From the NCBI GenBank assembly GCA_043228905.1, contig JBHGNT010000017.1:10230001-10294000 (forward strand): a DNA stretch of 64,000 nt, written 5' to 3'. Shown here one piece after another: positions 9,274-64,000 of the stretch (position 1 is the first letter of the stretch; each line of letters starts with the position of its first letter). The stretch is from Azolla caroliniana. Lineage: Eukaryota; Plantae; Polypodiophyta. Position numbers and translations under genes: made by a program. The notes under the pieces are model-generated. The model was not told the origin of the DNA, did no database searches, and saw only the letters and a program-made list of their open reading frames with translations.

Positions 9274-9413
9274 TTGCTCATCACCGAGGAGAGTGAGCTA
9301 AACTTGTCGGCGACGAGATGACCTGGGTGGTCGACTCCAGAGGCTCATTCCACCTTACCTCGGAGTGGAAATGCTTCTCATCCTACTCAGTCGGTGATCA
9401 CGGCTGTGTCTGA

Positions 9414-12286: not shown

Positions 12287-12470
12287 GAAGACCCGGTGAG
12301 AACCGGATGAGGAGTACCCGGAAACAGAAGACCCGGTGAGAACCGGATGTGGAGTACCCGGCAAGGGAAGACCCGGTGAGAATCGGATGTGGAGTACCCG
12401 GCAACAGAAGACCCGGTGAAAACCGGATGAGGAGTACCCGGCCAGAGCCGGATGGCGAAGACCCGGTGAG
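12287..12470 (+). repeat. 40-bp CCGG-rich tandem array in the B1 LTR
   Basis: About 4 copies of GAAGACCCGGTGAGAACCGGATG(A/T)GGAGTACCCGGCAAC(A/G). Confidence 0.9.
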
Positions 12471-12998
12471 AAGTGCTCACTGGAAGAAGGGACATATTCG
12501 TAAATATGTTTTCTGAGAGTCAATCGGGGCTATATTTGTATATAGCCGAAAAGTCATATTAGTATAAATATGACTTAGGGCAAACCTTATGATGTTCTTG
12601 TCATTCTTGTTAGCGCAAGATTACAGCGCAACAGTGTACAAGGAGAGAGAGAGAGAGAGAGAAAGAGATGAAGAGTTCGTCTGTTGTAACCGCTGCTTGT
12701 GGCGAAGATAGCAAGCTCGAGGTCATTGCCTCGGTGCTTCACTATTGTACATTCTGATCTAGTGATTGTTTGCAGTCTGTGGACTGCCATGGTTTTTCCC
12801 TAGTTTGGGTTTTCCACGATAACATCCTATGTTCTCTTCTCTTCACTGTGTCGTGCATTCACTATCCGTTTTCTGTGTGTTCATCCTAGGATCGGTTGTG
12901 GCAGAGCGTTGTTCATTCGGAGCTTGTGTTCCTGTCACGTCCCATGATTGTCTCGAACTACTTGTAGGTGTCCAAAATGGTAGATATTTTGATCTTCC

Positions 12999-33500: not shown

Positions 33501-36500
33501 CGACCTTTCGTTACGCACCGGTTTGTGTACCAGATTACGCATCCGTTTTACACACTGGTTCAGCCTAACCAATCGGTCCCAACCGATCCGATCCTTGGCT
33601 TGCTTAGCCGATCCGGCCGATGTTGAGCTTATCTCTCAACACTCCCCCTCAAGCTCAACTTGAGGCTCTTCGGGATCTTCCGGATCACCGCTCTGGTTCC
33701 TCCTGGCTCCACGCCTCGCTCGCGCTCCTCGGCCTGTTCGACTCCGCGCGCTTTGACCCTTCCGGTCGGCTTGTCTGCTCCAACGTCCCTTCACAGCTCC
33801 CTTGCTGTCGTGGTGTTGGCGCTTCTCCTACTGCCTTCTTTTCCGCTTGGCCCTCGGTTGATTCAGTGTATCTGAATCAAACATCCGAACCGACTCAGCT
33901 ACCTCCAATCGGTTTTTGCTCTCGTCCAAGTTGGTTGTCTCCAACTCGTCTTCGGTCTTCTCGCCCTTGACGACGTCATCTCCCCCATGCTTCAGCTCTT
34001 TCTTTCGGTTGTTCCCCTTATGTCCGCTTCCAGACTCTTCCGCAGATCCGCCCTCGGCTTCTTCAGTTGATCCGAAGTCGAATTTTTCATCCGACTCGGC
34101 GTCATGGTCTTTTCCGCTCCTTTCCTACTCCCTTCCGTGGTCATCCGGGATATCTCTCCCCCTCAAGTTCGGCACGTCGAGGTGACACAGCCCAAGCGCA
34201 CCCGAGAACTCCCACAACTTGTCCAGACCAAGGGGCTTGGTGAAGATGTCGACAGTTTGCCGATCCGTCGAAACATACTGAAGTTCGACTTCACCAGAAA
34301 GGACACGTTCATAGACAAAATGGTAGTGCACCTCAATGTGCTTGGGCCATGCGTGGAAAACGGGGTTCTTCGTGAGCTGGATGCTGATAAGGTTGTTGCA
34401 GTAGATGGTTGTCGGATCAGACACCTCCTCTTGTAGGTCCTTAAGTAGCCGCTTCAACCATATGGCTTCGCATGTCGCGACATCCGCTCCTCGGTACTCA
34501 GATTCGGTGCTCGACAGTGCAACTTTCGGCTGCTTCTTACTGCTCCATGCTATCGCGGCACTCCCAAGAGAGAACGTGTATCTGGACGTGGATTGGCGAT
34601 CAGCGGCGTTGCCAGCCCAATCAGCATCAGTGTAGCCGACCAACTACGAGGTTGTACCGGTTCGATATAGCAGTCCCCGGTCCTTAGTGCCGCTTACGTA
34701 CCGCAGTACGCGTTGTGCACACTGAAGGTGCTCCTCGGTAGGTCGGGCCATGAACTGACTAATCACCCCGACCGGATAACTTAGATCAAGTCGGGTGATT
34801 GTCAAGTAGATAAGGCTTCCGACAATTTGTCGGAACCTCGTCGGGTCGTATACCTGTTTGGAATTGGGGCGAAGCTTGACGGTTCTATCCAGAGGAGTCG
34901 AGACGGACTTATAGTTGGCCATCCCGAATTTGAAGAGCATACTTAGCACATAATGGCGTTGGCTAATCAATATGCCTTCGGGGGTACAGATCACTTCGAT
35001 CCCAAGGAAGTAATGAAGATCCCTCAGATCCTTCATGTCGAATGATGCCACAAGCTAGAGCTTCACGCGGTCGATTTCACCTAGATCGGCGCCGGTGATG
35101 ACCAAGCCATCAACATATAGTAAAATACTGACCGGACCGAGTCGACCTTTCCAGATGAACATGGAACAGTCCGATTTTGATGTTGCAAAGCCCATCCGAC
35201 GCAGTTGCTACATGATCTTCGCATTCCAGGCACGCGGGGCTTGCTTCAGTCTGTAAAGGGACTTCTTCAATCAGCACACCGTCGACGTGTTCTGTCCGGA
35301 GTGAAATCCGAGGGGTTGTACCATGTGCACCTATTCCTCAAGCTCACCTTGCAGGAACACATTCTTTACATCCATCTGATGTAAGTGCCACCCCTTTGCT
35401 GCAGCTACCGCGAGCAACACACGGACGGTCGTCATCTTCGCGACCGGCGCAAACGACTCATCGTAGTCGATGCCGTGTTTCTACGCGTAGCCTTTTGCCA
35501 CTAACCGGGCCTTGTATCGGTTGACCGAGCCGTCGGTGTTGTACTTGACCTTGTACACCCACCTACATCCGATTGGCTTCACACCTTTGGTGTGTCAACC
35601 AAGTTCCAGGTCTCGTTTTCCGCCAATGCGTTCATCTCTTCCTCCATCGCGGCACGCCAATTCGCGTCCTTAGCCGCTTCTGCGTAGCTCTCCGGCTCAC
35701 GCACTTCCACTACACGGGTCATGTACGCATAATGATGCGCCATGTACTCGTTGTATCCGAATCGCACAACTAGGTTCTTCTGGCGGGTAGATCGGCGTAA
35801 TCAGTCATTAGCCAATGTCGAGGTCTTCCCGGCCGACGCGAACTTCGTTCTTGAAGACCCGTCACCACTTCCCTCGGAGTCGGACTCGCGTTGGTCTGAC
35901 TCGTTCCTATCCGTCCCGGAATCCGACACCTTCTTCTTCCCTTTCACTTTGTGCATAAGCCATCTCCTCGGCTTCCTGCGCGGGGAATGCACGACCGAGT
36001 CTCCACTACTCGCCGACTCTTCATCGGACTGGTCAAACCGACTCAGTCGTCCATGCAATCCACTTAACCGAAACGAAATCAGACTCTCTTCGCAAGTCCC
36101 GATTTCAAGCTCATCCGGAGGCATCTCGGCCTCGCTGACCTCATCGTTAGAACTCGGATTGGAGGTGAGGTCCGGAGTCAGAGGCAAGTACCAGGACGCA
36201 GACTCATCAAACACAACGTCGCGGCTCACGCGCGCTTGTTTGGTGCGTGGGTTATAACACTTATAACCCTTCTGCTCGTCCGAGTAACCGACCAAGATAC
36301 ATTTCTCGGCCTTTGCGTCCAGCTTCCTCCGTTTCTCCTTCGGCACATGCACATACGCAATGCTACCGAAAACTCATAAGTGTCGCAAGTTCGGGTTCGT
36401 TCCGAAATATAGCTCGTGCGCCGACGCTTTGTCTCCGATCCAGTTCTAGATGTATACCGCGGTCCTTACCGCCTCGGCCCAGTAGAACTTCGGCAAACTC

Positions 36501-39500
36501 TTCTCCTCCAGCATTGCCCGTGCCGCTTCCACAACCGACCGATTTTTCCTCTCGGCCACGTTGTTTTGCTCCGGCGTGTATCTACAACTGAATTGTTAGG
36601 AAACAAGTCCCTTCGGATGGGAAGACCCGGTGAGAACCGGGTGATGAGTACCCGGAAACGGGAGACCTGTTGAGAACCGGATGTGAAGTACCCGGAAACG
36701 GAAGACCCGGTGAGAACCGGATGTGGAGTACCCGGCAACGGAAGACCCGGTGAGAACCGGACGTGGAGTACCCGGCAACGGAAGACCCGGTGAGAACCGG
36801 ATGTGGAGTGCTCACCGGAACAAGGGACATATTCGTAAATATGTTTTCTAAGAACCTCGGTGCTTCACTATTGTACATTCTGATCTAGTGATTGTTTGCA
36901 GTCTGTGGGCTGCCATGGTTTTTCCCTAGTTTGGTTTTTCCACGAGAACATCCTGTGTTCTCTTCTCTTCACTGTGTCGTGCGTTCACTATCCGTTTTCT
37001 GTGTTTCATCCTTGGCTCGGTTGTGGCTGAGCGTTGTTCCTGTCAAAGTGGTATCCGAGCAAAACGACACAGAAAATGGACGAATCGTTGGGAGGCATGT
37101 GCAAGCTCACCGGCTCCAACTATTCGGTGTGGAAGTCGAAGATGAGGGACATGCTCGTGGTTAAAGATCTTTGGTTGCCGGTTCAATTCGGGGACAAGAG
37201 ACCGGACAAAATCAACGCCACGATATGGGAGGTGATGCACATGAAGACAACGGCGTACATACGGTGCTTCATCGACATGAGTCTATACAATAACTTCAAT
37301 GAAGAGAGCAAGGCTCATGAGCTCTGGGAGAAGATCAGCATTATGTTTCAAAACAAAAATGTTGTTAATTAGGTTTCGGTATTTCGGAAGCTAGTAAGTC
37401 TTCGGTACCAAGATGGCTTCAGCATGGCGGAGCACATGAATGCCTTCCAGGGGCTGATCCACCAGGCAACGTCATTGGAAGTACCTCTAGGCGATGAGGT
37501 ACTAGCGCTACTCCTGCTCGGTTCCCTCCCAAATAGCTGGGAGACGTTGGTTGTCACCTTGGGCAACGCCAGGCCGGAAGGGAAACGGTTATCCCTAACA
37601 AGAGTGAAGTCGAGCTTGCTAGATGAGGAGGCGCGTCAGAAAGATAAGGATACGAGCTCCGACTCCAAAGCACTCCTTACCGAATCGGAACGTGGAAGAC
37701 ACAGGAACCGTAGCCCCAGAACCGAGAAAAGTCGGGGATACGGTCAAAGTAAAGGGGGAGGCCTACTTGCTTCTATTGCGGCAAGCCGGGACACTTCTAG
37801 AAGAACTGTTGGCACTTCCGAAAAGACAAGGAAACCGATGGTACCGATTCGAAGCGAACACCGGACCGAAACGGTAAAGACCGGAGGGGGCCGGATCGGA
37901 CGGGAATGACGGCAATCGTGGCAAGTGAAGAAGAGTTGATGCTCATCACCGAGGAGAGTGAGCTAAACCTTGCAGGCGACGAGATGACCTGGGTGGTCGA
38001 CTCCGGAGCGTCGTTCCACCTTACCCCGGAACGGAAATGCTTCTCATCCTACTCAGCCGATGATCACGGTGTCGCGAAGATTGTGGTTGTGTGTCGCAAC
38101 CGCTGGGGTTCTATGACTCGGGGATGATCGGGGTGAAAACGCGTAATCGCAAACGTTGCGATGACAAGAAGCCGAGAAGGCAAGATAAATGCGACGTTGT
38201 CGCGAAAAGAATTTTACTTGTAAAACAACCACTTACAATATTTATTTGCCAAAAGTTACTTGGCAAGACTTGAACTCACAAACTCTATTTGAGAAGAAAT
38301 GTTTGAGATAGACCACTTCAATCTCTTTGCTTTCTTTTTATTTGTCTTTTTCTTTCACTTTATATATACTAAATTTATCGTACAAAATTTGATTACCAAA
38401 AGAAGTTATTTGAAGAGGATTCAAACTCACGATCTTTTGTTTACAAAGAGGCATTTGAGATACACCACTTTAACTTCTTCCTTTTCTTGTATCCACTTTC
38501 TTTTCTTTAACTCTTGTCTTGATTTATGTAGGCCACCATCTTCTTTGGCGAGCTCTGCATCCCATACGCACGCGAGTTTCTTCACTCACTTTTCCTTCTT
38601 TTCCTTCTCATTCTGCTCCCCTCTCTTTAGACACCATAGGCATGGCTTCTATAGGGTGGTCAACCGCCCTACCGCCGTCTTGAGGCGGTTGTATTTTTAT
38701 TTTTATTTTCTTTATTTATTGATGCTACAATTCAATTTTATAGTTCTATATTTAAGAGATTATAGAAATAGCCCTTATTTAATTTTGACTCCCCCTTTTG
38801 ACATAATTACATTTTTGTCCCAAGTAACATTAATCCTTCCGAAGCTTGTATGTTGGGCTTCTGAACTCCGATTCACGAACCGAAAATTCATTCATGCTCC
38901 TTGTCATAAGCTCCAGGTGGGAAATGTACTTCTATAGATTTTTGACATTGTTTTCACATCGTGAAGTGTCAACTTCACGACACCCACCCCCTCTGAACTT
39001 GCACACCTATGGGCGAGTTCACACCACTTCATTTTGATCCTCTTCGAAAAATTCTTCATCCTCGTTTTCTATGAGACTAGGTTTGGTGTCTTCTCTTCTT
39101 TTAAAAATCTTTATTCTTTTTCCCGCAATTGGTGTCTTAATCCCAGTCCCATCCAACTCATTTAGGTAGTAGGTAGCCTTATCAGTCACCTTCCGTACTT
39201 CGTAAGGCCCAAACCACCATTTTGCGAACTTCCTCATTGTACTGTACTAGTTCTTGAGGCTACTATCCAGTACCAACACCCAGTCTCCTTCTTGGTCTTA
39301 ATCTATTTACTTTGTCAAATCTTGCTTTGTTCTTTATCCGAGCTTCCTTCAATTTCTTAGTAGCCTTTTCTACATCTTCTGCTTGACATTGTAGTTGTCG
39401 GATACGAACTGCTAGCAAGTCTTCTCTACTCATCTTTGACTCCCATGGTAGCATTGCCCATGTATCAATCTTCTCTTCAATCAGCATCATCGGCCTTTGT

Positions 39501-42382
39501 CCTGTCATGAGCTCTATCGGCATATATCCTGTCACCAAATTGAGTGTGGTCCTATCCGCCCACAATGCATATGGCAAGACCTTTGGCCAATTACCTACTT
39601 TGCCTTTACATGCTTTTGCAAGTGCTTTAACTATCGGGCTATGACCTCTTTCTATCTTTCCATTTGCCTCAGGATTATATGTTGTGGTCAATGATAACCG
39701 AATTCCAATTCTATCAAAGAACTCTCTTGCTTCATCAGAATTGAGCTCACCTCTATCAGCCACTATCTTCCCTATACACCCATACCTACATATTATATCC
39801 TCTAATATGAATTGACATACTGCCGATGTGGTCTTCGATCTTAGTTCTCTTCCTTCAACTTGATTTCTAAGGTCTTCTATAGTGAGTACCAAGAACTTCT
39901 TTTGACTTGCCCCCATTGGCATTGCCACTATATCAACCATCCACTTGTAATGTATATTCGGCGAATAGGTTGGGTGCAACTCATCTCTATGCTTAATGTT
40001 GGGGTAGATTTGACAGGTTGGGCATGTCTCGAAATACCTCTTGATTTCGTTGTAGAATCTTGGCCACCAATATCTTTCCTTTATTTTACTAAATGTTGCC
40101 CAGACTCCATGGTGTCCAGCCCACTCCCTATCATGTAATTCCTTTAATATCTGCTCCCGCTGCACTTGGTCACAGATAACCCGTTGTGGATTTCCCATTT
40201 TATACTTTGGGTGCCTCCAAAGATAACCTTGGTGCAAGAAAAATCGGTGTGCCTTCTTTCGGAAATTTGAGAAGTTTCTCCCACTCCAAGTTCCTTCCTT
40301 CCATGGTGCTTGTAGATACTTCCCGATTTCCTTAAACTCTTCATTATACTCTTCTTCTTTAAACTCATGTTCTTCATGTGGCTCACCCCCTCTAATTGCA
40401 TTTATGACCAAAGCTGATTCTTCTTCGTCGCTATCTGATTCTGCCACTTCTTCTTTTTCATATTTTGCTCTGGATAACATATCAACCATTGCATTCTTCT
40501 CACCAGATATATGTCGAACATTTGGGTTGATGGTTTTGATGTAGATACACCACCTAAGCATTGCTTGGTCTGGAATATTGCAATTTGCAATAATCCCCAG
40601 AATTGGCAAGCAATCTGTCTCCACAATCACCTCAGCACCTACCAGATAGTCCCTATCCGTCTTGATAGCAATGATTATCCCCTAGAGCTCTCTCTTCACT
40701 TGCGCATACTTTCGTTGACGTCCGTTAAGTACCTTCGCACCAAATCGAATCGGATGTCTTTCTCCTTCCTCATCTTGTTGGTTTATTACCCACCCGATTC
40801 CAATCGGACTTGAGTCAACTGTAAGGATTATTGGTTGGGTGTAGTCAGGTTGTTTCAATGCAGGAGCTTTAGCCAGATTCTCCTTCAGTCTTTTAATTGT
40901 ATTTGAGTATTCTTCTGTCCACTCAAATGCTTCCCCTTTTCTTAATAGCCGATACAATGGATCTGATATGTGGGCATAATGTGGAATCCACTTGCAATAG
41001 AAGACACATGCACCCAAGAACCTCCGAACTTTAGATACAGAGTTGCATTCTTCTTTCATATTCTATATTGCGTTGATCTTTGTTGGTGTTGGCTTTCTTC
41101 CGTATCTCCCACACATATGTCCTACCACTAGTACTTCTTGAACCCTGAATATTGATTTTGGAGCTGAAAGTGTTAGGTGTACCTCCTCTAGTCTTGAAAG
41201 CACTTTATCACAATCTTCTATGTGATCCCTGACGAACTTCTGAGATCCACTACTATCCAATTCTTCATTCTTCATTCTTTCCTCGCATCCTTTAATGGGT
41301 ATATCATCCAAGAAAGGCATGGTTATGTGAGGAATAAAATCTCGGAAAACTTTGTGCATACCATTCATCATGTGAGCGACCGAGTTGGTCGCACCTTGAG
41401 GTAGGGTACACATTCGAAGTAATCCAATAGGAGTCCTAATGGAGGTGATATCCCAACTACCGACCGCAAGCTGGAACTGGTCATATCCGGAGTAGAGATC
41501 ACCCATAGAGTAGATCGCTCTTCCAGTGAACATCTCTGCAAACTCATCTACTATCGGCCCTACTCCTAAATTCCGGATAGTAACTTGATTCATAGGTTGC
41601 ATGTCTTGAATGAATCGAAGCCACCCATCCTTCTTTTGCACCGTAAACCATCTACTCGAGTATGGAGCGTTTGATGGTTCCAAGATGCCCATGTCCATTT
41701 TCTTTTTTAGAAGCTCGATTAATTGCGGTATCCTTGCTCTTGGCACTGGGATTGGCTTCAGATTCCACGGAATGTGTGGGATCGTGAAGATGACCATTGG
41801 TTCAACTACTTTCGGATTCACACATCCAATTTCTTCAGGGTTGAAGGAGAATGCTTTCCCATGCTGCCCTAGCATTTTTCTGAATTCTGCTTCTTCTATA
41901 GGTGTTACGAAGTCCTCCCCTCCAATTCTTAGTTCTTTAATTGTTTCTTCCGTGAACTTGTGCCCAATTCTCTTTGGATCCCGAAGAATTGGCTCGGTCG
42001 ACACCTCCTTCATTATCTTTTCACTGTCTTCTGGAAGTGGTGTTGCTGTTGGCCGGACCTTCTTCTCCACCGTTTTGTACTTGGTGTTTATTCGAGCTTC
42101 TTCATTTTGAACATACTCCTTGATGGTTTTGAATAGCTCGATGGAATTTACCACAACTTCAACTTCATCATCTTCCGTCATTAGAGACTCCAACTCTCCT
42201 ACTGTATCTTTAAAACAATATTCTTCAAATATATTCACTAATTTTTCTTCTGAATCTATCATACCTCCACCTTGTAATTCTTTTTCTATTTTTCGGAATT
42301 TCTTTCCTTTGAAATCTTCTATTATAGTTGTGCCATCTACCGACGCAACATATAATTTACCGTTATCTTCAATGCTATGAAT

Positions 42383-42445
42383 GGGGCTTCTTACCTCCCT
42401 CAGGCCATCACAGCCCCTTTTTGTAAGGGCCCGCTCTAGAAATCC
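42383..42445 (-). promoter_or_regulatory. Putative -1 ribosomal frameshift signal (G GAT TTC plus downstream stem or pseudoknot)
   Basis: Heptamer immediately before the protease stop; -1 frame is open from there into the RT ORF; GGGCC/GGCCT and GGGGCT/AGCCCC pairings. Confidence 0.6.
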
Positions 42446-44739
42446 TGTACGAAATCCCCCACATCTCGTAGTGGATGATCTCGTAGATTCTCCTTATTCC
42501 TCTCATGATTTGGTCGAACAGTAAGGAACTGTACTAACCTCTTCCCATCCTGGCTTCGAATCCTAGCAAATGCCGCTCCATTATCAATCACATTAGTCTC
42601 CATCCGCACTGTTGTGATGTACAGTTGCCCTAGAATTATTGGATAAAAGGACTTCTCCTGGACGAAGAAGATTTGATCTACTGACACGTCCCCAATTGTA
42701 ACTTTAATATTTGGGCATGCGCCACATAAATCCTGCACAACCTCAGTCGCTGCTCTCACCTTCCAACTGTGGTTCCTTTCTATTGGACATCTCCCACAAT
42801 TGTAGAAATAAGATGATATGATCTTAATCTCGGAGCCGTGGTCGATGAGTGCCACACATGATTCCATCTGATCTCCAATTCTGACAGGAGCCTCGGTTGT
42901 CGCCCGCGCCCAATGTGTGCGGGTGTAATGGCTTCATTCCTCTTCATGACTACATTGTGTGTCAGCACTCCGTACCCCGTCTAACAATGCAGTCTCCATA
43001 TCTTCATCTTCCTCACGTATCATGACGGTATTTTTTCCACCCGTTTCTTCAACCACTTGTCTTTTCCTCCGAATCACATCAATGATCACTTCATGAAATT
43101 CCTTCTTTGCGATCCCTAGTACTTCTCGGAGTGTTAACTCAACTTTACTATCGAGAATCCTTGATTCTAGCACATGCTTTAGGTCGGTGAATGTTTCGAT
43201 GTTGGAGGCGAGTTTGAATGACGGGGCTATCTTTTGCTTACCTTTGTCTTCTTTCATCGCCTCCGCAGCAACTCGTTCAGTTTCTCGTCTCTTTTGTTCT
43301 CGGGTCTCGGGTTTTCTAGAAGGTCCCGCTTCTTCAGTTCTCCTTCGTTTTTCTTCGATTGTCACCTCATGGGCATTCACCCCTACTATCTTGGCGATCG
43401 CAATGAGTGAATCTACTGGGTCATTCCACCCAGTACTACTCGTTATCTCGTCACCAGCCTTTCGTAAGTCTTGTGGCTTGACTCTTTTGTCAGTAGCAGA
43501 CTTTATCACTTTTCCCCAGAATCCTGATTCAATCTAGGGATCATCGACCTTCAATCCGGAAGTAGTCAAAACGTACATTGCCTGAACATTCTTCGACTCT
43601 TCGTCCTCCATCACTTTCTTCATTCCACCTTTGCCAAAGTTGGTTTTTAGGGGTTGTCGGGTCTCCGAGGAGTGGATTCTCCCATTTTGATAGAAGATAA
43701 TGTTTCTTTCTAACGCTTCCTTATGGCTCTGACAATCCCTTTTTTGGTGCTTCGTGTTATCGCACCATATGCATCGGCGGATGAATTCACCCTTTTCTCC
43801 TTCATTGGGCTTTTGTCGAACACCTGAGCTTTCCCCCTTCTCAAGCTTTGTGAACTTGAGTTGTAGATCCCATAATCCCTTTATCAGATCATCAATCGTA
43901 GACTCTAGCTCCTTTCCTTTGCCAACATCCATTCGGGTTCCTGATTCTTGTTTTGGATGTTCTCTGGCTATTGTCTTTATTCTATTGTCATAGCCATCCT
44001 CCATCCTTAGCGCCCTCCTTCTTAGTACTCGACAAGCCTCGAGTACTTCCGCCCAATCGGACACCAAACCGGTTGTGCTTGTCCGGTCTTCAAGAAGGAT
44101 GGTCATATCTTTTCTAAAAGATTTATTTGTCGCTCGGAAGAATAAATCCACCTTCTCTGATTGTAGTAGTTCTCGGTCTCTTACCGATAGCTCATTATAT
44201 CTTTTCTCAAACTCTCTTAGCAATTCTGAAACTAAGAGTCCTTTAACCCCTTTCTCGGTCCATTCGAGAAAGCTCTTCTTTGACATTCGGGTCCGGTCGT
44301 CTAGCATGTATTCATCAAGCAATGCTTGACGGAACCCGGCCCAATCTTCACGAAATCTCTCCGATAATTCCGTTACCCTTGCTCGGACATCAAATGTGCA
44401 TACCCGATTGATGCACGAGACCATTTGTTCTCCGGTTGCCCCTCTACTGGCCATCTCATATTCGTAGACCTCAAGGAACCGAGTGACGTCCTCGCCATTA
44501 AATTTGTTTATCCTCTCGATGACCGTTTGTACAGCGAGCGTTAACTCACTTTCCATCCAGTTCATTGCACTTTGCTCTTGAAGCATCCAATTCATCATCG
44601 TCATCATGAAACTTGCCATCTCTTCATTGAAGCCCTTATTTGCCATCTCTGTGTTGGCACCTTTATCCGCCATTTTCTTTGATTTTCCGACCTTCTCTTT
44701 GTAAAACTTTAAGATCAAAACTCCCCTTGTCAACGACAC

Positions 44740-44756
44740 TTCACTCGGGTTCACCA
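44740..44756 (-). promoter_or_regulatory. Primer-binding site of D, tRNA-Trp-like
   Basis: Plus strand TTCACTCGGGTTCACCA versus recalled plant tRNA-Trp 3' end TTCACGTCGGGTTCACCA. Confidence 0.7.
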
Positions 44757-47700
44757 AATTTGTGTCGCGAAGATTGTGGTTGTGTGTCGCAACCGCTGGG
44801 GTTCTGTGACTCGGGGATGATCGGGATGAAAACGCGTAATCGCAAACGTTGCGATGTCAAGAAACCGAGAAGGCAAGATAAATGCGACGTTGTCGCGAAA
44901 AGAATTTTACTTGTAAAACAACCACTTACAATATTTATTTGCCAAAAGTTACTTGGCAAGACTTGAACTCACAAACTCTATTTGAGAAGAAACATCTGAG
45001 ATAGACCACTTCAATCTCTTTGCTTTCTTTTTATTTGTCTTTTTCTTTCACTTTATATATACTAAATTTATATTACAAAATTTGATTACCGAAAGAAGTT
45101 ATTTGAAGAGGATTCAAACTCACGACCTTTTGTTTACAAAGAGGCATTTGAGATACACCACTTTAACTTCTTCCTTTTCTTGTATCCACTTTCTTTTCTT
45201 TAACTCTTGTCTTGATTTATGTAGGCCACCATCTTCTTTGGCGAGCTCTGCATCCCATACGCACGCGAGTTTCTTCACTCACTTTTCCTTCTCTTCATTC
45301 TCCTTCTCCTCCCCTCTCTTTAGCCACCATAGGCGTGGCTTATATAGGGTGGTCAACCGCCCTACCGCCCTCTTGAGGCGGTTTGTCAACCGCCTCATGC
45401 AAGGCGGTTGTATTTTTATTTTTATTTTCTTTATTTATTGATGCTACAATTCAATTTTATAGTTCTATATTTAAGAAATTATAGAAATAGCCCTTATTTA
45501 ATTTTGACTCCCCCTTTTGACATAATTACATTTTTGTCCCAAGTAACATTAATCCTTCCGAAGCTTGTATGTTAGGCTTCTGAACTCCGATTCACGAACC
45601 GAAAATTCCTTTATGCTCCTTGTCATAAGCTCCAGAAGGGAAATGTACTTCTATAAATTTTTGACATTGTTTTCACATCGTGAAGTGTCAACTTCACGAC
45701 AACAGCTGTATCCGGATGGGGAATGAAGGTACGTGCCAAATTGTCGTCATAGGAGACGTGTGGTTGACAACACCAACCGGATGTAAGTTGCTGCTGAAGG
45801 ATGTCCGACATGTTCCGGAGGTTTGTTTGAACCTGATATCAGTCGGTCGGCTAGATGATGAAGGCTACACGAGTAGCATCCAGAACGGTGTTATGAAGTT
45901 CAACAATGGGAGCCTGATTGTGGCTCGGGCCCGGAAGGTAGACACGTTGTACCTGATGAATGGCCGGTTATGCCCGGAAGAAGTGAACGTGGCATCTGAC
46001 ACTGCTGGTGAGCTGTGGCACAAGAGAATGTGTCACATGAGCGAGAAGGGGATGAAGAGGCTTGCAGAAGACAACCTCATTCCAGTGAAGCAAGTGCACT
46101 TGGAGAAGTGCACTGATTGTCTGGCCGGTAAACAAAATCGGACCTCCTTCCGATCGAGGCCATCGATGAGACGTAATGCACCACTGGAGTTGGTGCATAC
46201 TGATGTATGTCAAGTGGACACAAAGTCACATGCCGGATCGCAGTACTTTGCGACATTCATATATGATCACAGCTAGAAGCTGTGGGCCACACCGTTGAAG
46301 ACGAAGGATCAGGTGTTATCCGTCTTCAAAGAGCTCCACGCGAGTGTGGAAAGAGAAACCGGCCGGAAGCTGAAGGTGGTTCGAGCAGATAACGCAGGTG
46401 AATAACGGGGGGCAGTTCGAGGAGTACTGACGGATGTGGAAGCCAGATCGGAGAGGAAAACTAGATCCGAAGACCCGGCCATGCATATTCCTCGGTTACG
46501 GCAACGATGAGTTCGGCTACCAAGTGTGGGACCTGGTCGACAAGAAGGTATTCCGGAGTTGAGATATTATCTTCATGGAGGACAAGACGCTCGCCGACTG
46601 GGAGTCGGAGAAGAAGATAACGAACTCTGAGTCGATCAGTAAGGATCGTTTCTACGGTGAGCAGTCCCAACCGGCAAGAGACTGGTTAGCACTCGAGGAA
46701 CCAGCCGATTACGATGAGGATACCAAACTGGCAGAAGAAGTAGTAGAGGAAGCTGAAACCGGAACCAGCCAAGACCCCGAATCAGATTCGGATGAAGAGC
46801 AAATGGAGGAGCCGGTTACCGAAGCCCAAAGATGGAGATATCCTCTCAGAGAGAGAAGGGCCCCCTGGAGATTTCCAGATGCAAAGCATGTGCTGCTAAT
46901 CGATGAGGGGGAGTTAGAAAGCTTCGAAGAAGCGAAGGATGACACCCACAGCCGAAAATGGTTATGTGCCATGCAGGATGAGATGGATGCCTTGCATGAG
47001 AACCAGACGTACGAATTGGTGGAGTTGCCGAAAGGAAGGCGGGCACTCCGAAACAAGTGGGTGTACAAGTTGAAACCGGGAGATGTCGGCAACCCCCCGA
47101 GATACAAAGCCAGGATCGTGGTGAAGGGGTTCCAGCAGAAGAAGGGTGTGGACTTCGACGAGATATTTGCCACGGTAGTAAAGATGACCTCCATCCGGAC
47201 GGTACTGAGTATAGCGGTAGGCATGGACCTCGAGGTAGAGCAGCTGGACGTGAAGACGGCATTCCCTCACGGTGACCTCGAAGAGGAGATCTACATGTAG
47301 CAACCGGAAGGATTCGTGGAGAAAGGGAAGGAGCAACTGGTTTGCCGGTTGAAGAAGAGCTTGTACGAACTGAAGCAGGCTCCCCGACAATGGTACCGGA
47401 AGTTCGACTCCTTCATGACCGATCAAGGGTACCACAAGACGCAGGCCGATCACTGCGTGTTTGTGAAGAAGTTCGAAGGAGGCGACTTCCTATTACTCCT
47501 TTTGTACGTGGACGACATGTTGACCATCGGACAGAACCAAGCCAGAATATGGATGCTGAAGAAGGCTCTCAACCGGACCTTCTCAATCAAAGACTTGGGT
47601 CCGGTTGAGAACTAGATGTGGAGTACCCGGCAACGGAAGACCCGGTGAGAACCGGATGAGGAGTACCCGGCAAGAGCCGGATGGCGAAGACCCGGTGAGA

Positions 47701-50700: not shown

Positions 50701-53700
50701 CACATCCATCTGATGTAGATGCCACCCCTTCGTCACTGCCACCACAAGCAAGACAGGGATAGTCGTCATCTTTGCGACCGGTGCGAACGTCTCATTGTAG
50801 TCGATGTTGTGTTGTTGTGCGTAGCCCTTTGCCACTAACCGGGCCTTGTATCGGTTGGCGGAGCTGTTGGTGTTGTATTTAACCTTGTATACCCATCAAC
50901 AACCAATCGGTTTCACTCCTTTCAGCATGTCCATGAAATCCTACATCTCATTTTCCGTGAGTGCGTGCATCTCTTCCTCCATGGAATTCTGCCAGTTCGG
51001 ATCCTTTGCCGCTTCTGCATAGCTCTTCGGCTCACGCATGGTTGCCACCCTCACCATGTACACATAATGATGCGCCATATAATCATTGTACCCGCACCTT
51101 TTCACGGGGTTTTTCTGGCGGGTGGATCCACGTAATGCCTGATTCACCGATTTCGCGGCCCTCTTGGCCAACGCGGACTCCTTTTTCGAAGGTCCATCTT
51201 CGCTCTTCCCGGAGTTGGTCTCGTTCCGATCTGACTCGTCTCTACCAGTTGCATATTCCGACATCTTCTTCTTCCCCTTTTCCTTGCGTATGAACCATCT
51301 CCTCAGTTCCTACGCAGGGAGAGCATGACAAAGTCTCCACTACTCGCCAACTCTTCATCTGACTGGTCATTCCGACTCAGTCGCTCATGTGGCCCACTTA
51401 GCCGGAATGAGATCGGACTCTCATCTCGAGTACCAAATTCTTCTTCATCTTCTACCTGGATCATTTTGGGCTCACTGGAATCATCCTCCGGAGTCGGGTC
51501 GAAGTCAGGAGAGAGTACCATGATGCTGACTCATCAAATTCGACATCTCCGCTAACTCAAACCTGTTTTGTTTGGGGGAGAGAATGTTGTCCGTTGGACT
51601 AAAAATGTGATATCATTGGGAACCATATATGTAATTACCTAGAAAGAATCGTAATACGAAAAGTAGGTAAAAGTAGGTAAACGAGTGTTATGAAACAGGA
51701 AGCCGAGTCATACGCAGCCGAGGAAAGAATAAGTACACGCGCCGAAGAAGTTGAAAACAATAAACTATATAAGAAAATAAGTTGAGGACAGTAAGGGGGA
51801 CATATAGAAGGATCACAATAGAATCAGACATATAGTCTAGAGAAACAGAATTAATATCGGCATATAGTCCTGAGCATGTAATTCATGATCTATTTAATAT
51901 AACAGAGTTGGGTTTTGATCTGTGTTTCCGTGGTACTTCCGTAACGCCACAGAGTGAGTTTTTTCTATTTCATGCACTAAGTATTGTGTTTCATCGGTGA
52001 AGGTGATGTAAAGTCGTCACCATTTATCAAGAGTAACTTGGGGATTACTCATACCACATCTCTTGGTCCGATTCGACATAGCGATCAAAGGTGTTGCTTC
52101 CAGATAGGCGGTAAAACAATTTGGCACACCTGGTTCAAGCTATCATTCACAGTGAACTTACGAAGTAGTCTCCCCAGTCGCCAATACGACGCCCACTACA
52201 CTAACGGCCCGGATGCCGAAGCTCACATCCACTCCTTCCTAAACACATGGCAGGCCAACCATTTGACACAACGGCTCACCGCCGCAAAGATCGATGCGTC
52301 CAAAATCGCCGAATTTACACTTTCCCTCGACGGCCCCGCCGCACGATGGTATTCTCGCAACGACCCTAGGAAGTTCACCACTTTCCATCATGAAGTCCGC
52401 ACATAGTTTTTGGAGCTTTTCCATCACGAAATCCCTATACGCGAATTGCTTTGCCAATTCTACACTATCGAGCAAGGACCCCATGAAACCGTTGCCCAGT
52501 TCGTCCTCAGATTCCAAGATCTATATCGACAAGTGGCGCGAGATGTCTTGACAAACCACTTGAAGGAAACGTTCCTCACCAACCTTCAGGAGCCTCTTCG
52601 CACAACATTGGCACTTATGGACTTCTCTCAAAACAGCATCACTGGTAGCTCGCGTTCTCGCCCTGGCTTGCACACACCACAGTAATTCCTTTGCCATTGT
52701 TACGGTGCAAGCGGCTCTACCAACAATGGAGGAAACGCACTTATGACATGCCTTACAATGCACAATCTGCACCAGTGCCGGTCACTCTGCTTTGGACTGC
52801 CCTTCCCGACCGCAATGCCCCATCTGCCATTCACGGAACCATGCGGTCGAGCAATGTGAATACAACATGCTGAACGCACAGCCGCAACTACAATTCACCA
52901 AATTGAGCCTTGAACCAACCCTATCCAACCACCCCCACCACCCAGAGAAGCACCATGGCTATGGGAAGACAACCGACCACACTACCACACGGTTAATGCC
53001 CCTGATACGACATGTTGCACCAGGGAAAATCCATATCGGAACGACACTCAGAACCACCCTACCCCTATCACCAAGATCACCAGCACTACTGTCGGGATTA
53101 CAACTACCAACCGAAACGTGGATTCCATCATAATTCAAGTTCCCGATATTTCGGCAATCGTCGATATTTTGATAACCGCCGTCGGGATCAACATCGCGAC
53201 AACACTTGGCATCACCACCACATGGAGCCTCAGGGAAATCCATCCCAAGGCTATACTCCACCAGGACGTGACGACCAACTACAAAATCCAACACCATCCC
53301 CATTCGAGCACTGCGACCCCAGCACATCGGCACTAGTAACTTGTTTTAATTGTAACCAACCCGTCCATTCCGCCAATCAATGTTCTAATGACACCAGGGG
53401 AAAGGCACCCGCCATCAATATGATTACGATGGACGTCCAACAAGTCACCACACGAAGTAAGACCGTGTAATCATCACAATGCGACCATGGTTACGTACCG
53501 CCAACATCAAGCAACAGTAGCAAAAGAATATGATCTCGTTCCGCCATGGCAAAACAAAAGTTTGCGTCACCACAGAAGCACGGAATCCAACTCCGATTGA
53601 TAACAACCCACTTTACGCCGAAGGAGTCCATATGCTAGATGGCCTGACGGACGACGAGATGACCTCTTTTCTTGACGAGCACCCCACAAGCGTGCCACTT

Positions 53701-56540
53701 TTCGAAATCGACGTCCTTTTGGCCGTGGAGCCCTACATCGCCACCGATAGCAAGACCCATGAACTCCACAAACCAGACCCTGCATCACTGAAGGATTTGC
53801 AGCAAGCCCACGATGCGCTTGAACGAGAACTAGTGATATCACAGTGGGTAAAAGCCTCCACCTTGGAAGACATCAACCTCGAATCCCCAAGTGTGCCGTG
53901 CACAGTCAAAATAGCTAAAGACTTGGCCGAGAACGATAGGTTGGCTTTAATAACACTGCTTATGGAGTATCAAGATGTGTTCACTTGGTCTTACAATGAC
54001 ATGAAGGGTCTCGATCCCCAATACTACCAGCATCAAATACATTTGCACACAGATGCTTGGCCCGTTCAACAACGACGTTACCGTATGAACCCCAATTATG
54101 CAGCACGGGTCAAGGAAGAAATTGACAAATTACTCCGCATCGGGTTCATCCGGCCAATCAAACGAGCAACCTAGCTCAGCCCAATCGTCGTTGTTCCGAA
54201 AAAGAATGGACAGATACGGGTTTGTGTGGATTACCGGAAACTAAACACTGCCACAATCACCGACACATTTCCCTTACCTTTCACCGATAACATTCTTGAC
54301 ACGGTAGCCGGTCACGATTGTTATAGCTTTCTGGAAAGGTTCAGTGGTTATAATCAAATCCGCATGGACCCGGATGATCAAGAGAAATCGTCTTTCGTTC
54401 CGGAATGGGGAGTGTTGTAGCAGTAGTCATGATGTTTGGGTTGAAAACGGCCCCCACCACATTTCAATGCATAATCTCAAAGATTTTCGACGACTTCATC
54501 CCCGCATTTATGCAAGTATTCCTAGATGACTTTGCGGTTTACGGCCGTCATACCGAACACTTACAACATTTATGATTATGCCTTGACAGATGTCGCAAAG
54601 CCCGGCTCAACCTCAATCCGGCTAAGTGTGCTTTCCATGTCACAAATGAGGCGTTACTAGGACACATCGTCAGCAAAGAGGGCATCACAATGGATCCCGC
54701 CAAAGTACAGGCCATTTTACACGCCCCAGCCCCGACCACAGCTAAAGCTCTAAATAGATTCCTGGGACAAATACGGTGGCACAGTCATATGCTCCGGTAC
54801 CTAGCCGATTTTGCCACTCCATTACGCACCATGGTTCACACGGTGCCCTTCCGATGGACAAAGCGCGAAGACATGGTGTATCAATCCTTAAAGATCATGT
54901 TGTCTCACGCCCCGGTCGTCCAACCTCCATACTGGACACAACCATTCCACGTCTTCGTGGATGCATCCGATATCGCGATCGGTAGCGCTTTGATGCAACG
55001 AACGCCACCAAACTAGTTTTGACCAATCTACTATACTAGCCGCCGCCTATCACAAGCCGAGAAAAACTACTCCACAACCGAAAAAGAAGCGCTCAACATG
55101 ATTTATAGTATTTCCAAATTTCGGCATTATCTGCTCGGCCGAAAGTTCACTTTTCACGTGGACCACTCAGCATTGTTTTATCTGGTCAATAAGCAGGCAC
55201 TAACGCGAAGATTAGCCCGATGGATGTTACTACTCCAGGAATTCGACGTCGACATTCAGCATCGTTCAAGCTTACAACACGCGGTCGCCGACTACCTTAG
55301 CCGCTTAGAAAGAGGGGAACCGCCGGACCAGGAATATGGTGACTTTCCGGACGCCCCTTTATTCTCTATTCACGACACAACACTGGAGTCGCACCCGGAG
55401 GATGCCTGGAGCAGGGACATGACGTATTTATGCCTCATCAGCCTATCCTTCCCTTGGAACCATTCCAAAAGTGGGGACTGGATTTCTTAGGCCCGTTCAA
55501 ACCACCCGCGGCCCAGACAAGCAACAAATAAAGCGTGGTCGCAACCGATTATTGTACGAAGTGGGTCGAAGCCAAAGCCCTACGTGATAACACGGCAACA
55601 TCCACCATGAAGTTTATTTACAAACAGTTATGGTGCCGCTTCGGTTGCCCAATCGAGCTAGTGAGCGACCAAGGCAGACATTTCGTTAACCACTTAATAC
55701 GGGAATTAACCTCCCATTATGTTGTAGTCCATAAGAAAAGCACCCCCTACTATCCTCAAGCCAACGAACTTGCCGAATCAATGAGTAAAACCTTGCAAAC
55801 CATCCTTAAAAAAATCATCAACGAAAATCGCACAGACTGGGATGACAAGCTCCATAGCGCTCTTTGGGCATATCGCACGACATTCAAGACGAGTATCGGC
55901 TCCATGCCTTTTCGGCTCGCGTTCGGATTGGAAGCAGTAATGCCAATCGAGTCCCAAATCCCCAACCTCCGACTTAAGATTGTCGATCGACTGCCGGAAT
56001 TTGAATCTGAGCGCTAGCGGCTGACTCAATTACTCGAACTTGGTGAACAGCGCATTCACAACATGGCCCAGCTAGAGCACGGTCAGCGGCGCCGAAAAGC
56101 CTTTGTCAACAGACATTTCGGAATCAGGCAGCCAGTCTTAGTTTTCCAAACAAAACTCGAAGCGATGCCGAGCAAGCTTCGATTTCAATGGATAGGGCCC
56201 TTCTGGATTATTGATACGTACCACAGGACATTCCAACTCGGCAAGTTAGCAGGCGAAGCCCTGTCATAGTGGGTCAACGGGTTTCGATTGAAGCCGTACC
56301 GCGGGCCAACCCCACCAAATCCTTTCACCAAACACCACCAAGATTCCGACAAACCTAAGGTAGGTACAACTAACGAACGAGAGGGCATCACGCCAGAATC
56401 ATGGTAACAACCCACCAATTAATCACGGTTTAACAAAAAAAAAAAAAAACCCACCACTCGTTATTTAAAGACACAAAGTGTTAGTACGATAAGCAAGTAC
56501 TAAATGCGGCTAACACGACGCCTGGTCTTTAACTCCCAGT

Positions 56541-58886
56541 ATGGCAAGCAAGATTCTAAATCTAGGGAGGAAAGGTTCGCCTCGGGATTTGAGAAACCCT
56601 CCAAAAAACAGACCTCAACAAGAAAGCTTCCACCTTCGTCAACACTACTCTCAAGCCATCTCTCCTCCTGCACTTACATCCCCTAGCTCTCCAAATCCCT
56701 CTGCTCAAACCCTATCCCACTCTCCTTCGCCTCCCGTTCTGCTTAACTCCTCAACTTCCACCATGCCGTTTGAGGTATCGACCGAACTACGAACCTGACT
56801 CACCCAAAAGGGCCTAGCTGGATACCTGCAGATTTACGATGTTGATGCTCACCCAAGGGCACAGGCCATCACCTCAAAAATCCACCCCAGCACCATCACC
56901 AATGATATCATCCGGTTTTCTCTTTGCCTGCCAAGAGGTGGGGAATATGATGTCGAGGCACCTCCCCAACATATTCTAGAAAAATATTTTGGGGAGTACT
57001 CCCTTTCTGCTAAAACCCATCTCATGCACGATGGCCCCAACGAGCTCTTTGGGGATCTCGCTCATTTTTTCCTTAAGTATGTCTGTATCTATCAAAACTC
57101 GCATAGCATGCCGAAGAAAAAAGCAGGGTTGATCATTCTCGTGCACAAAGGGCGCAAAATCGATTGGGGCAGCATCACAGGGGAAGGTGTCAAAGCAGCC
57201 ATCGCTTCTTTCAAATCGGGGAAACGCTTCTTGCCGGTCCTGGCCCAATACACCGTCGTGCTCTACCCACCCGAAGCTCAGCTTCCACGCCAGCCATTGG
57301 CGCTCCCTGCCCCGCCCCGCCCCCCAAACCTAAACGACGCCACACGGTGCCTCACGAGGAGTGGACTGAGTGCCTCACGCAGGGGATAACATCACACTCT
57401 GAGGACGAGTCCAAGAGACACCGAAGGTCACCTCTCCGCACCCTGATCAAAACACGAGCACATAGGCCGCAACACCTCGCTCTGGAGGACCACAACTGAA
57501 ACGCGGCCACAATGAAACATCCTCACCTAAGCCAGATGCCACGAAACGCCGCCTCACAGACCAGGACAACGCGCATCAACCTGACCCTTTGGGAGCGACA
57601 CCGACTCTGGTGGTAGCACCAGTTACGACACTCGCGGTCATTCCAGGCCACACCGAAAAGGGCCAGGCGTCGAGGTTTTCTATAGACGACGTCTTCATGC
57701 TGCGAGACATGCCTGCCGAATCTTTTGAACTAAGCGCTTTATTGCAACACGGCACGTCATACGAACTCATTGATTTCCTGGCCAAATTACAAGTAGCTAC
57801 TGCGAACCGAATGGCGCAAGAACATGCCGAGAAACAAGTAATTCAAAGGGCCCTTGATAATGAGCCTGCTTCGGACAACGAGCCAAAACTCTAAAAAGTC
57901 GGCAAAAATAGGGGAACAAAGAAATGACGCACCCGTATTGAGCTCCCTGAGCTCAATATGGCGTTAGTCGAAACATACAGAGAGCTCGACCACGAACACG
58001 CACGGCTAAGGATATGGCCGCAAACATTCAAATTGCTCGTCAACAGGCCAAAATAGCAACAGAGCTCTGGCAGAATTCAGAAATGCAACGAGCCGAGTTA
58101 GAGCAGAAGCTCGGTACGGTGCTCTTCGCACCATCGTCCACTCTCCCACCCCCTTCAGACCAAACAACACAAACGGCTACTACCTTAGAACGCGAGGTTG
58201 AGCACAAAAAGCACATACAGGCCTTAGACGATGCCCATGCCAAGTTCAACCACGAAGTCGACAAGATAACAACTGAAACTGAAGCCAGGGTTCAATCAAT
58301 GAACACAACGTATGAAGTAGTTGCGGTCCAATTATGGCTAGAAATTGAGCAAGCTAAACAAGATAACCTGGCTCTTCAAACACTACACGATGAAAGGGAG
58401 GACCGAATCAACATGCTGGTTATGAAGCAACACCAGAAATTGAATCGCAAGATCGACGAAACGCTCGACACCGGATGGAAGAAATGGTCGGCTCAAGCAG
58501 CCGGATTACAGGTTTTACGGGTGGACGCCAAGAATCTTCAGAAAGAAGGCAAAGTATTTTTTTAAATGGACAAAACAAGCATCAGTATGATCCGAGAAGA
58601 CCTCGAGGAGGATTTCCACGCCCTCGCTGATGGACACACAAAAGCTATTTCCGTGCTCTTGGAGGAATTCAACGACGATCAAATGGTGTTGTGGATCGCC
58701 GCCAAGCAAACCATGGACATTACAACAACCGACGGCGACGAAGGACCAAGCAAACCAGTTATAGGCACCTCCCCGAACGATCAGAGCAACGAGCCAAGGG
58801 ACGAAGGAAGCAACGATGTACGGTCTGAACCAGAGACCGTAACAAAACTAGCGGAGGGCATCTTCCACATCCTCCTGGAGGATTAA
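56541..58886 (+). pseudogene. Extra ORF of element E, broken by stops and frameshifts: globular part with KIDWG motif, Pro-rich linker, coiled coil, acidic tail
   Basis: ORFs 56541..56798, 57024..57389, 57589..57894, 58014..58565 and 58566..58886 between integrase and 3' LTR, preceded by an oligo-A spacer. Confidence 0.7.
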
Positions 58887-58953
58887 CTGTCCTTTAGATT
58901 TTCTTTTCTTTTTGAATTTTGCGTTTTTTGTGAGTTCAACGTGCCACGGCATT

Positions 58954-58970
58954 GTCCCACGAGTGTGCCA
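58954..58970 (+). other. Sense copy of a tRNA 3' end (inverted PBS) at the PPT position of E
   Basis: GTCCCACGAGTGTGCCA, then GG, then LTR TGTTG; its reverse complement begins TGGCACAC like the 5' PBS. Confidence 0.75.
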
Positions 58971-60038
58971 GGTGTTGTCCGTGGGAATAAAAATGTAATA
59001 TCGTTGGGAACCGTATATGTAATTACCTAGAAAGAATCATAATACGAAAAGTAGGTAAAAGTAGGTAAACGAGTGTTATGAAACAAGACGTGGAGTCATA
59101 TGCAACCGAGGAAAGAGTAAGTACGCGTGCCGAAGAAGTTGAAAACAATAAACTATATAAGAAAATAAGTTGAGGACAGTAAGGGGGACATATAGAAGGA
59201 TCAGAATAGAATCAGACATATAGTCTAGAGAAACAGAAATTAATACCAGCATATAGCTGTGAGGATGTAATTCATGATCTATTTAATATAACAGAGTTGG
59301 GTTTTGATCTGTGTTTCTGTGGTACTTCCGTAATGCCACAGAGTGATTTTTTTCTATTTCATGCACTAAGTACTGTCTTTCATCGATGAAGGTGTTGTAA
59401 AGTCCTCTCCATTTATCAAGGGTAACTTGGGGACTACTCGTACCACGTCTCTTGGTCTGATTCCACGTAGGGATCGAAGGTGTTGCTTCGAGATAGGCGG
59501 TAACAGAGAGTACCATGATGCCGACAAGGATGCACTTCTCTGACTTCAGGTCCAGCTTTCTCCGCTTCTCATCTGGCACATCCACAGAGGCAAGCAATGT
59601 TATTGAATATCTTAAGGTGCCTTAAATTGGGCTTCCGCCGGAAATACAGCTAATGTGTTGACACCCGATCTGGTTTTGGATGTAGACGGTCATTCGGACT
59701 GCTTCGGCCCAGTAAAACTTGGGCATGCTTTTCTCTTCCAGCATTGCCCGTGTCGCCTCAACAATCGACCGGTTCTTCCTTTCAGCCACACCGTTTTGTT
59801 CTGGTGTGTATCGGCAGCTAAATTCCCTCCGAATTCCTTTCTACTATAGATCATTGTTGAATTGGCCGAGAAAGTATTATTTTCCGCCATCTGACCGCAG
59901 GCACTTCATCTTCCTCTCCGTTTCCCGTTCAACAAGACTTTGCAGGTTCCGAAAATAGTCAAAGACTTCGCTTTTCTTCTCGATGAGGTAGGATCCACGT
60001 GTGTCGACTATAGTCGTTGATGAAGGAGACAAATTATT

Positions 60039-63256: not shown

Positions 63257-64000
63257 TGTTGGGAGACAAGTCCCTCCGGATGGGAAGGGAGAAGAACAGA
63301 GATGGATGGCGCAGACCCGGTATGAAGACCGGATGAGGAGTACCCGGCTACGGAGAGCCGGATGGTGCAGACCCGGTAAGGAATGCTCACCGGATGAAGA
63401 GACATATTCGTAAATATGTCTCTAAGAGTCCATCAAGGCTATATGTGTAAATAGTCGAAAAGTCATATCAGTATAAATATGACTTAGGGCAAACTTTTAG
63501 GCATAGTGGTTATTATTTCTTGTCTGCGTGAGATCAGAGCGCGTAATAGTGTACAGAGAGAGAGAGAGAGAAAGAGGTCGTTGCCTCTGTTGTAACCGCC
63601 GCCTGTGGCGAAGATCATCACGAGGTCGTTGCCTCCGTGAACTCACTGCTGTACATACTAACCTAGTGATAGTTTGCAGCCTGTGGGCTGCCGTGGTTTT
63701 TCCCTAGTTTGGGGTTTTCCACGTTAAACATCATGCGTACTCTTCTCTTCCATTGTGTCATTCTTTATTTCCCGTTTTTTGTGTATGATCCTAACCTCGG
63801 TTCTGGCCGAGCGTTGCGTATAGGGAGCGTTCAGTTCTCGTCAAGTGGTATCAGAGCGAAACGACACAGAAAATGGACAAATCGTTTGGCGGCATGTTCA
63901 AGCTCACCGGCTCCAACTATTCAGTGTGGAAGTCGAAGATGAGGGACATGCTCGTGGTTAAAGACCTCTGGCTGCCGGTTCAGTTCGGGGACAAGAGACC
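63257..64000 (+). mobile_element. Copia B3 5' end (LTR 63257-63843, PBS, gag from 63873) inserted in the RT of G
   Basis: LTR similar to 12999-13843 but with only ~1.5 54-bp units; PBS TGGTATCAGAGC; MDKSFGGMFKLTGSNY. Confidence 0.93.

Follow-up and report, generated by a model that had tools for sequence, protein, structure and literature searches.

Element E, a Ty3/gypsy retrotransposon with long terminal repeats (LTRs) in a 64,000-nt stretch of the genome of Azolla caroliniana, belongs to a plant clade that has no polypurine tract (PPT) and carries a conserved tRNA 3' end, split by a hairpin, 2 nt in front of the 3' LTR. With a probability of roughly 0.7, this tRNA-like cassette acts as a second primer-binding site (PBS) on minus-strand DNA. 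The stretch, hereafter the window, covers positions 10,230,001 to 10,294,000 of contig JBHGNT010000017.1 (assembly GCA_043228905.1) and is a nest of decayed LTR elements, in which E (51585-59505, plus strand; LTR pair 51585-52116 and 58973-59505) is inserted within a minus-strand Copia element. According to textbook teaching, plus-strand synthesis in LTR elements and retroviruses begins at a purine tract that resists RNase H. The trait described here is real, lineage-wide and, as far as our literature search reaches, undescribed, and it represents a variant of LTR-retrotransposon replication.

The longest purine run in the 60 nt preceding the 3' LTR of E is 3 nt, and the last run of at least 6 nt upstream of this LTR begins at 58877. 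The place of the PPT is taken by a cassette of 41 nt, which consists of a T-arm block, a 4-bp hairpin and a 17-mer with a CCA end, GTCCCACGAGTGTGCCA (58954-58970). Two further bases, GG, separate the 17-mer from the TG at 58973 with which the 3' LTR opens. The start of this LTR was fixed in two ways, by alignment to the 5' LTR and by a 5-bp target-site duplication (TSD) with one mismatch. An earlier note on this DNA had reported the missing purine tract and a 17-mer ending in CCA 2 nt before TG, and both statements were confirmed when the coordinates and the LTR start were checked. The feature itself is larger than 17 nt, as the T-arm-like block (58930-58939) and the hairpin (58941-58952) belong to it. 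Read on the minus strand, the 17-mer is a putative PBS. The parts of E are, in order along the window:

51580 to 51584, plus strand: left TSD, GAGAA, with one mismatch to the right copy
51585 to 52116, plus strand: 5' LTR of Gypsy element E; in alignment with the 3' LTR, 490 of 532 positions agree (Kimura two-parameter distance, K2P, 0.084)
52122 to 52134, plus strand: 5' PBS of 13 nt, starting 5 nt past the LTR end
52140 to 52157, plus strand: decayed hairpin and TGAAC block after the PBS, from comparison with sister contigs and relatives
52215 to 56340, plus strand: broken gag-pol with gag, zinc knuckle, reverse transcriptase (RT), RNase H and integrase, compared with the intact relative L011
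56762 to 58885, plus strand: broken extra 3' open reading frame (ORF) in forward orientation, related to the 976-aa extra ORF of L011
58930 to 58939, plus strand: T-arm block of the cassette, standing where a tRNA has its positions 49-58; G at 58938 in sister contigs
58941 to 58952, plus strand: 4-bp hairpin that interrupts the tRNA match between the counterparts of positions 58 and 59; C at 58952 in sister contigs
58954 to 58970, plus strand: 17-mer ending in CCA, in the sense of a tRNA 3' end, with one base fewer than in the tRNA layout
58971 to 58972, plus strand: 2-nt spacer from CCA to LTR
58973 to 59505, plus strand: 3' LTR of E, from alignment with the 5' LTR
59506 to 59510, plus strand: right TSD, GAGAG, with one mismatch to the left GAGAA

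The distribution of the cassette was followed in loci that had been chosen by their integrase and not by the motif, namely the best 80 of 461 confirmed metagenome stretches and three genome contigs (83 in total). Sixteen of these have at least 2.9 kb beyond the integrase (L083, a weak 38-aa hit, was excluded), and half of the 16 belong to the E clade. All seven clade loci that run from the integrase into the 3' LTR (L003, L005, L008, L011, L038, L041 and L081) carry the tRNA-end site, always 2 nt before TG and directly in front of a TG-starting LTR; the eighth, L026, has a sequence that stops about 240 nt short of the position of the site. Two further loci, L034 and L058, have the cassette upstream of an LTR. 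Near-identical pairs among the loci are L005/L038 and L008/L011. In 10 of 10 cassettes CCA (CTA in two) is followed by 2 nt and TG, and the spacer that had been noticed in E is therefore constant. The eight long loci outside the clade carry no cassette; two of them, L077 and L080, whose PBS is of the Asp type, keep a purine tract, as both have G7A and then TG roughly 1.4 kb ahead of the LTR end, and the purine-tract state of the outgroup is readable in these two of the eight, the 3' LTR start being unplaced in the other six. L069, too, has a PBS of the Asp/Asn type, as have L077 and L080, and lies outside the E clade. The second Gypsy element of the window (minus strand, 38069-45701; LTRs 94% identical; PBS region beginning TGGTGAACCC) shows an ordinary purine tract in front of the 3' LTR and serves as control. 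In an integrase tree of 74 rows, the eight motif-labelled rows all fall inside one clade of 34 rows (98/93), which includes three of the five Adiantum nelumboides rows and stands apart from the angiosperm rows that are Athila-like or bear an archaeal-type RNase H (aRH). Named relatives by RT-RNase H are found in Riccia, Marchantia and Adiantum, at 47-53%, and the hosts of the clade loci are likely non-seed plants, as judged from these sequences. In the viral contigs searched, neither a cassette nor an integrase relative was found. Two hits were dropped as 3' cassettes: that in L029 is the 5' PBS on the other strand, and that at 977 in L041 lies inside gag.

Spread over the family is also apparent from public contigs aligned to 58700-59100, which came from four of eight contig collections, three studies and two organism labels. 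The summed contig depth is 200-1,400 on the flanks and reaches about 30,000 (X1), 9,000 (X2), 6,500 (X3, the second organism label) and 5,900 (X4) over 58952-58979. The loose contig ends on both sides of the motif are unlike one another, and therefore many families with differing LTRs and differing upstream DNA have just this stretch in common. In most of the depth, positions 58938, 58952, 58961, 58962 and 58964 are G, C, A, G and C, respectively; because E has other bases at these five positions, its copy is a decayed variant. The earlier note had asked for a comparison with sister copies, which might carry a normal PPT; both sister copies and related families carry the tRNA-end site and not a PPT.

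In the close clade the cassette is composed of a 10-nt block that resembles tRNA positions 49-58, then a hairpin whose 3-4 bp are free in sequence, and the 17-mer. Without the hairpin it is collinear with tRNA 3' ends called by ARAGORN. The identity of the 17-mer over six families is 0.89 versus 0.24-0.33 in the flanks, and 26-27 of 28 nt are paired with the tRNA in the close clade; in both comparisons the anchor of L041 is off, the true end of its cassette being 10319. Pairing of the minus strand leaves one tRNA base unpaired and loops out 13-14 DNA bases between the places of A58 and position 59. The partner in these comparisons is a phage stand-in, fetched with a pattern that had been built from the cassette. 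Resemblance to the last 18 nt of a tRNA, up to 1-methyladenosine 58, had been proposed in the earlier note; the tRNA layout holds, but the match does not end there and continues for 10 nt past A58, across the hairpin. In the sister subclade (L081 and L041) the match is 15 nt long, the one-base gap is missing and the hairpins are different, that of L081 being longer and placed elsewhere. The variants among the cassettes appear to lean towards G-U wobbles that would keep the pairing with tRNA, a bias that is confounded by methylation decay.

The label tRNA-Arg(UCU) for the site is provisional, the layout being common to phage tRNAs of many amino acids. No tRNA genes are present in the window or in the 22 loci, no matching tRNA was found in the searchable parts of the supplements of PMC5389709 and PMC3574835, and an Rfam search gave nothing meaningful. 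One viral match was rejected as a tRNA, as ARAGORN called none there, and a tRNA-like stretch at 52171-52183 was set aside because it is not kept in relatives. In pepper, an 18-nt PBS of this type is printed after an LTR-like end with no tRNA name (PMC10211496).

The hairpin is conserved as a structure. Its arms in the close clade are GGAC/GTCC, GCGC/GCGC, GTAC/GTAC or GGG/CCC, and GTGC/GCAT in E; 28 of 32 cells in eight rows are paired, and two of the four pairs are altered on both sides (G-C/U-A/C-G and G-C/A-U). Covariation amounts to 0.69 compared with 0.25 after shuffling, a value attained in 0 of 500 shuffles. A hairpin requires a single strand, which the RNA-DNA hybrid of a PPT-type primer does not offer, and the kept pairing counts in favour of tRNA priming.

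The 5' PBS of E, TGGCACACCTGGT, begins at 52122. The end of the 5' LTR was set at 52116, 5 nt ahead of this PBS, because sister contigs read C at 52115; within the PBS they read G at 52128 and C at 52131. The same 5' PBS as in E is found in L003, L029, L033 and L038. By type, TGGCACGCC was assigned to E, L003, L033 and L038, TGGCGACCACG to L006 and L058, and TGGCGACTCC to L081, with a decayed form in L041; provisional names of the site types are Arg(UCU), Arg(CCU) and Arg(UCG). Whichever tRNA type is present, the close clade has a short 5' PBS of 11-13 nt, and in six relatives (L003, L006, L029, L033, L038 and L058) it is followed by a hairpin and CG(A/G)AC, which is complementary to the tRNA T loop. 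This 5' PBS, certainly a site for tRNA, is putatively bipartite, and its architecture is that of the 3' site when the latter is viewed on the minus strand. The 3' site is constant while the type of the 5' PBS varies, as L041, L081 and L058 have a 5' PBS that differs from their own 3' site. In L081 and L041 the two LTRs lie on a single contig and the 5' PBS is of another type, so the 3' site did not arise as a copy of the PBS of the same element, nor is it the partner of that PBS. The suggestion of the earlier note that one and the same tRNA could prime both strands is supported, but the types of the two sites differ in these three loci.

How could such a site work? Most likely, the minus-strand DNA, once exposed, is bound by a host tRNA that then serves as primer for the plus strand. 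Minus-strand synthesis would be primed by tRNA at the 5' PBS, as is standard, and the site for it is present. After strand transfer, RT would copy U3 and the cassette, and RNase H would remove the RNA, again a standard step; motifs of RT, RNase H (DEDD) and integrase are present in the intact relative L011. The freed minus-strand DNA could then fold the 4-bp hairpin and pair with the last 17-18 nt of the tRNA and, across the hairpin, with the T loop and the 5' strand of the T stem, yielding about 27 bp with the stand-in tRNA. In a final step, RT would extend the CCA end through the 2 nt into the LTR, RNase H would remove the primer, and integrase would trim the 2 nt; this step is deduced from the fixed spacing. 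By way of speculation, the one-base gap and the hairpin may protect the tRNA-DNA hybrid from being cut before extension. The observations behind this comprise the lack of a PPT, a tRNA-sense site at its place with fixed spacing, the conservation, the hairpin, and the enzyme motifs of L011, and in 10 of 10 cassettes the position of the CCA end and its spacing match those of a plus-strand primer. For the clade as a whole it is likely that a non-seed-plant Gypsy lineage does without PPT priming and that host tRNAs prime both strands. Plus-strand priming would then take place on a DNA template, at a hairpin-split site by which the T arm is opened, and the tRNAs used at the two ends may differ. Among the mechanisms that can be inferred, tRNA priming of the plus strand, first put forward in the earlier note, has the best support.

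Several points weigh against this mechanism. Both tRNA binding and plus-strand priming are read from sequence. An 18-bp tRNA-DNA hybrid is itself a substrate of RNase H. The pairing energies show layout and not significance, because the pattern used to find the stand-in tRNAs had itself been derived from the cassette. Phage tRNAs for many different amino acids have this 3' layout as well (80 viral loci). Among the eight rows of the hairpin count are two pairs that are near-identical; L008 and L011 do not stand in register in this count, and the shuffles ignore kinship. CTA stands in place of CCA in two of the ten cassettes (L041 and L058), seven of the nine cassettes other than that of E come from assemblies with one accession prefix and maybe from one campaign, and contig depth is no copy number.

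The main rival is that the cassette serves as primer within the element's own RNA, that is, as an RNase H-resistant tRNA mimic that is cut after CCA in the manner of a PPT and needs no second tRNA; we regard this as unlikely. It would occupy the place of the PPT without a new substrate, RT-RNase H is described to cut precisely at primer junctions (PMC5371799), the plus strand forms a long hairpin in several loci, and the fixed one-base gap would be free of cost in a perfect RNA-DNA hybrid. However, a mimic leaves unexplained why the tRNA match resumes for 10 nt past a hairpin that is free in sequence and yet retains its pairing, and why the 5' PBS is built alike. L081 has no gap, a longer and differently placed hairpin, and has nevertheless retained the tRNA match. 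Still less probable is a tRNA-binding or structural signal for another step (holding the minus-strand primer in strand transfer, packaging or dimerisation), with the plus strand starting from some other RNA remnant. Ty3 does have a second tRNA-pairing segment near its RNA 3' end (PMC5371799), but that segment is complementary to tRNA on the RNA, whereas the cassette has tRNA sense and pairs only as minus-strand DNA. Moreover, no purine tract or other conserved primer candidate is located near the LTR, and the distance between the CCA end and TG is a constant 2 nt.

Pairing of the 3' motif with the element's own 5' PBS, either for circularisation of the RNA or for minus-strand self-priming, is very improbable. 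The mirror relation that the earlier note had described exists, and the complementarity is 8 nt in E and 11 nt in L003; the 8-mer of E has two occurrences in the 128,000 positions of the window, one of which is the PBS itself. L081, L041 and L058 have a 5' PBS of another type that matches in the terminal few bases only, and keep the 3' site; the first two already contradict self-pairing as a general account, and the plus strand would be left without a primer. The last alternative of the earlier note, a one-off template switch onto tRNA (or a decayed PPT, or chance) in a copy as old and broken as E (K2P 0.084), is hardly credible and is excluded as a one-off switch for this copy, since the site is common to many families, at least two organism labels and nine independent loci, although such a switch may well be the ancestral origin of the cassette. 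Compared with tRNA priming, docking for another step, self-pairing and a one-off event fit worse.

With regard to classification, E shows the Ty3/gypsy domain order gag-PR-RT-RH-INT between TG...CA LTRs with TSD and a tRNA-type PBS after the 5' LTR (52122-52134) that is kept in sisters. A PPT before the 3' LTR, a usual but not universal Ty3/gypsy trait, is absent in 10 of 10 cassettes. The LTR pair is about 92% identical, in line with an old copy. No chromodomain was found in the gag-pol of E, and none stands at the integrase end, as chromoviruses would have it. Athila elements have a PBS for tRNA-Asp/Asn (TGGCGCCGTTGCC) and a conserved PPT junction, neither of which is found in E; nor does E group with angiosperm Athila in the integrase tree, in which the angiosperm rows were called Athila from domain content and not from REXdb. 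The aRH of Tat/Ogre/Retand is missing, as the intact polyproteins of L011 and L081 contain no second RNase H family. Phygy and Selgy have a 4-bp TSD, a PBS for Trp or Ala and no extra ORF, and E has a 5-bp TSD (with one mismatch) and an extra 3' ORF; the TSD of L081 is not clean. An RNA polymerase III promoter of the TRIMp3 (Helenus) type does not apply either: such a promoter has its tRNA A and B boxes within the LTR, the cassette is outside the LTR, the place of the B box varies and is split by the hairpin, and neither ARAGORN nor Rfam detects a tRNA gene at the cassette. E is classified as a Gypsy non-chromovirus that, by these features, falls outside Athila, Tat, Phygy and Selgy. Its RT-RNase H is about 41-45% and its integrase about 45% identical to angiosperm relatives. 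The extra 3' ORF shares 41% over 158 aa with that of L011 (E-value 3e-47), and no Pfam family was found for it above cut-off. In L011 the forward extra ORF (6958-9888, about 976 aa) has a conserved N-terminal domain and a long coiled-coil-like part.

Among known systems, Ty3 of S. cerevisiae relies on a PPT to prime its plus strand, and its minus-strand PBS is bipartite (PMC5371799). E is similar to Ty3 in a tRNA at the 5' PBS, in RT-RNase H-integrase and in a bipartite pairing that reaches into the T arm, but lacks the PPT and has a 3' site in tRNA sense. The plant survey of Neumann et al. 2019 (PMC6317226) distinguishes three kinds of minus-strand primer (whole tRNA, half tRNA and self-primer), and in its accessible parts, including supplementary file 5, no PPT-less lineage is named. 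Like the plant non-chromoviruses of that survey (Athila, Tat, Phygy and Selgy), E has no chromodomain, an extra ORF and a 5-bp TSD; unlike them, it falls in a separate clade of the integrase tree, without aRH and with a PBS that is not of the Asp type. Athila of Brassicaceae has kept a conserved PPT junction (bioRxiv 10.64898/2026.03.20.713144). Helenus elements, which are terminal-repeat retrotransposons in miniature (Kojima 2024, PMC10886601), resemble E in having tRNA-derived sequence in an LTR element, but they are non-autonomous, have the tRNA part inside the LTR as an RNA polymerase III promoter, and keep PBS and PPT; a priming role of the tRNA part is ruled out in that paper. In the literature within reach of our search, from which subscription papers and Repbase Reports that may bear on novelty were absent, no description of a PPT-less, tRNA-primed plus strand was found. 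A possible precedent is REM1 of Chlamydomonas, for which an unusual inverted placement of a PBS near the 3' end has reportedly been noted; it is said to be a chromovirus that uses another tRNA and keeps its PPT.

A successful clade of many families without a PPT means that the PPT is replaceable. The clade also offers a natural system for the question of how RT tells primer from substrate on an RNA-DNA hybrid. If tRNA priming is true, tRNA would act at both ends of the cDNA, and tRNA fragments would have a second target. Elements of this kind are predicted to be overlooked by pipelines that demand a PPT. The intact relatives L011 and L081 make an experimental test practical.

L081 itself is a complete Gypsy element with an ORF of 2444 aa on a 79-kb contig (C10) that is filed in a Chloroflexia metagenome-assembled genome (G001). 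The single cassette of G001 is that of L081, and the contig is likely plant DNA in a bacterial bin. The flank of L011 (1-700) contains a decayed small-GTPase-like frame on the minus strand, Rab-like by eye. Where E is inserted (51507-51525 and 59506-59521), the host Copia lacks part of the integrase region that is present in its sister copies (25806-26412 and 35965-36568). At the break stand 15-19 nt copied from upstream sequence nearby, likely the result of a repair with filler DNA before the insertion of E. Tandem arrays with units of 54 nt and 40 nt are located at 12219-15171, 36553-36856 and 63257-63378, in LTR-like repeats of another element family.
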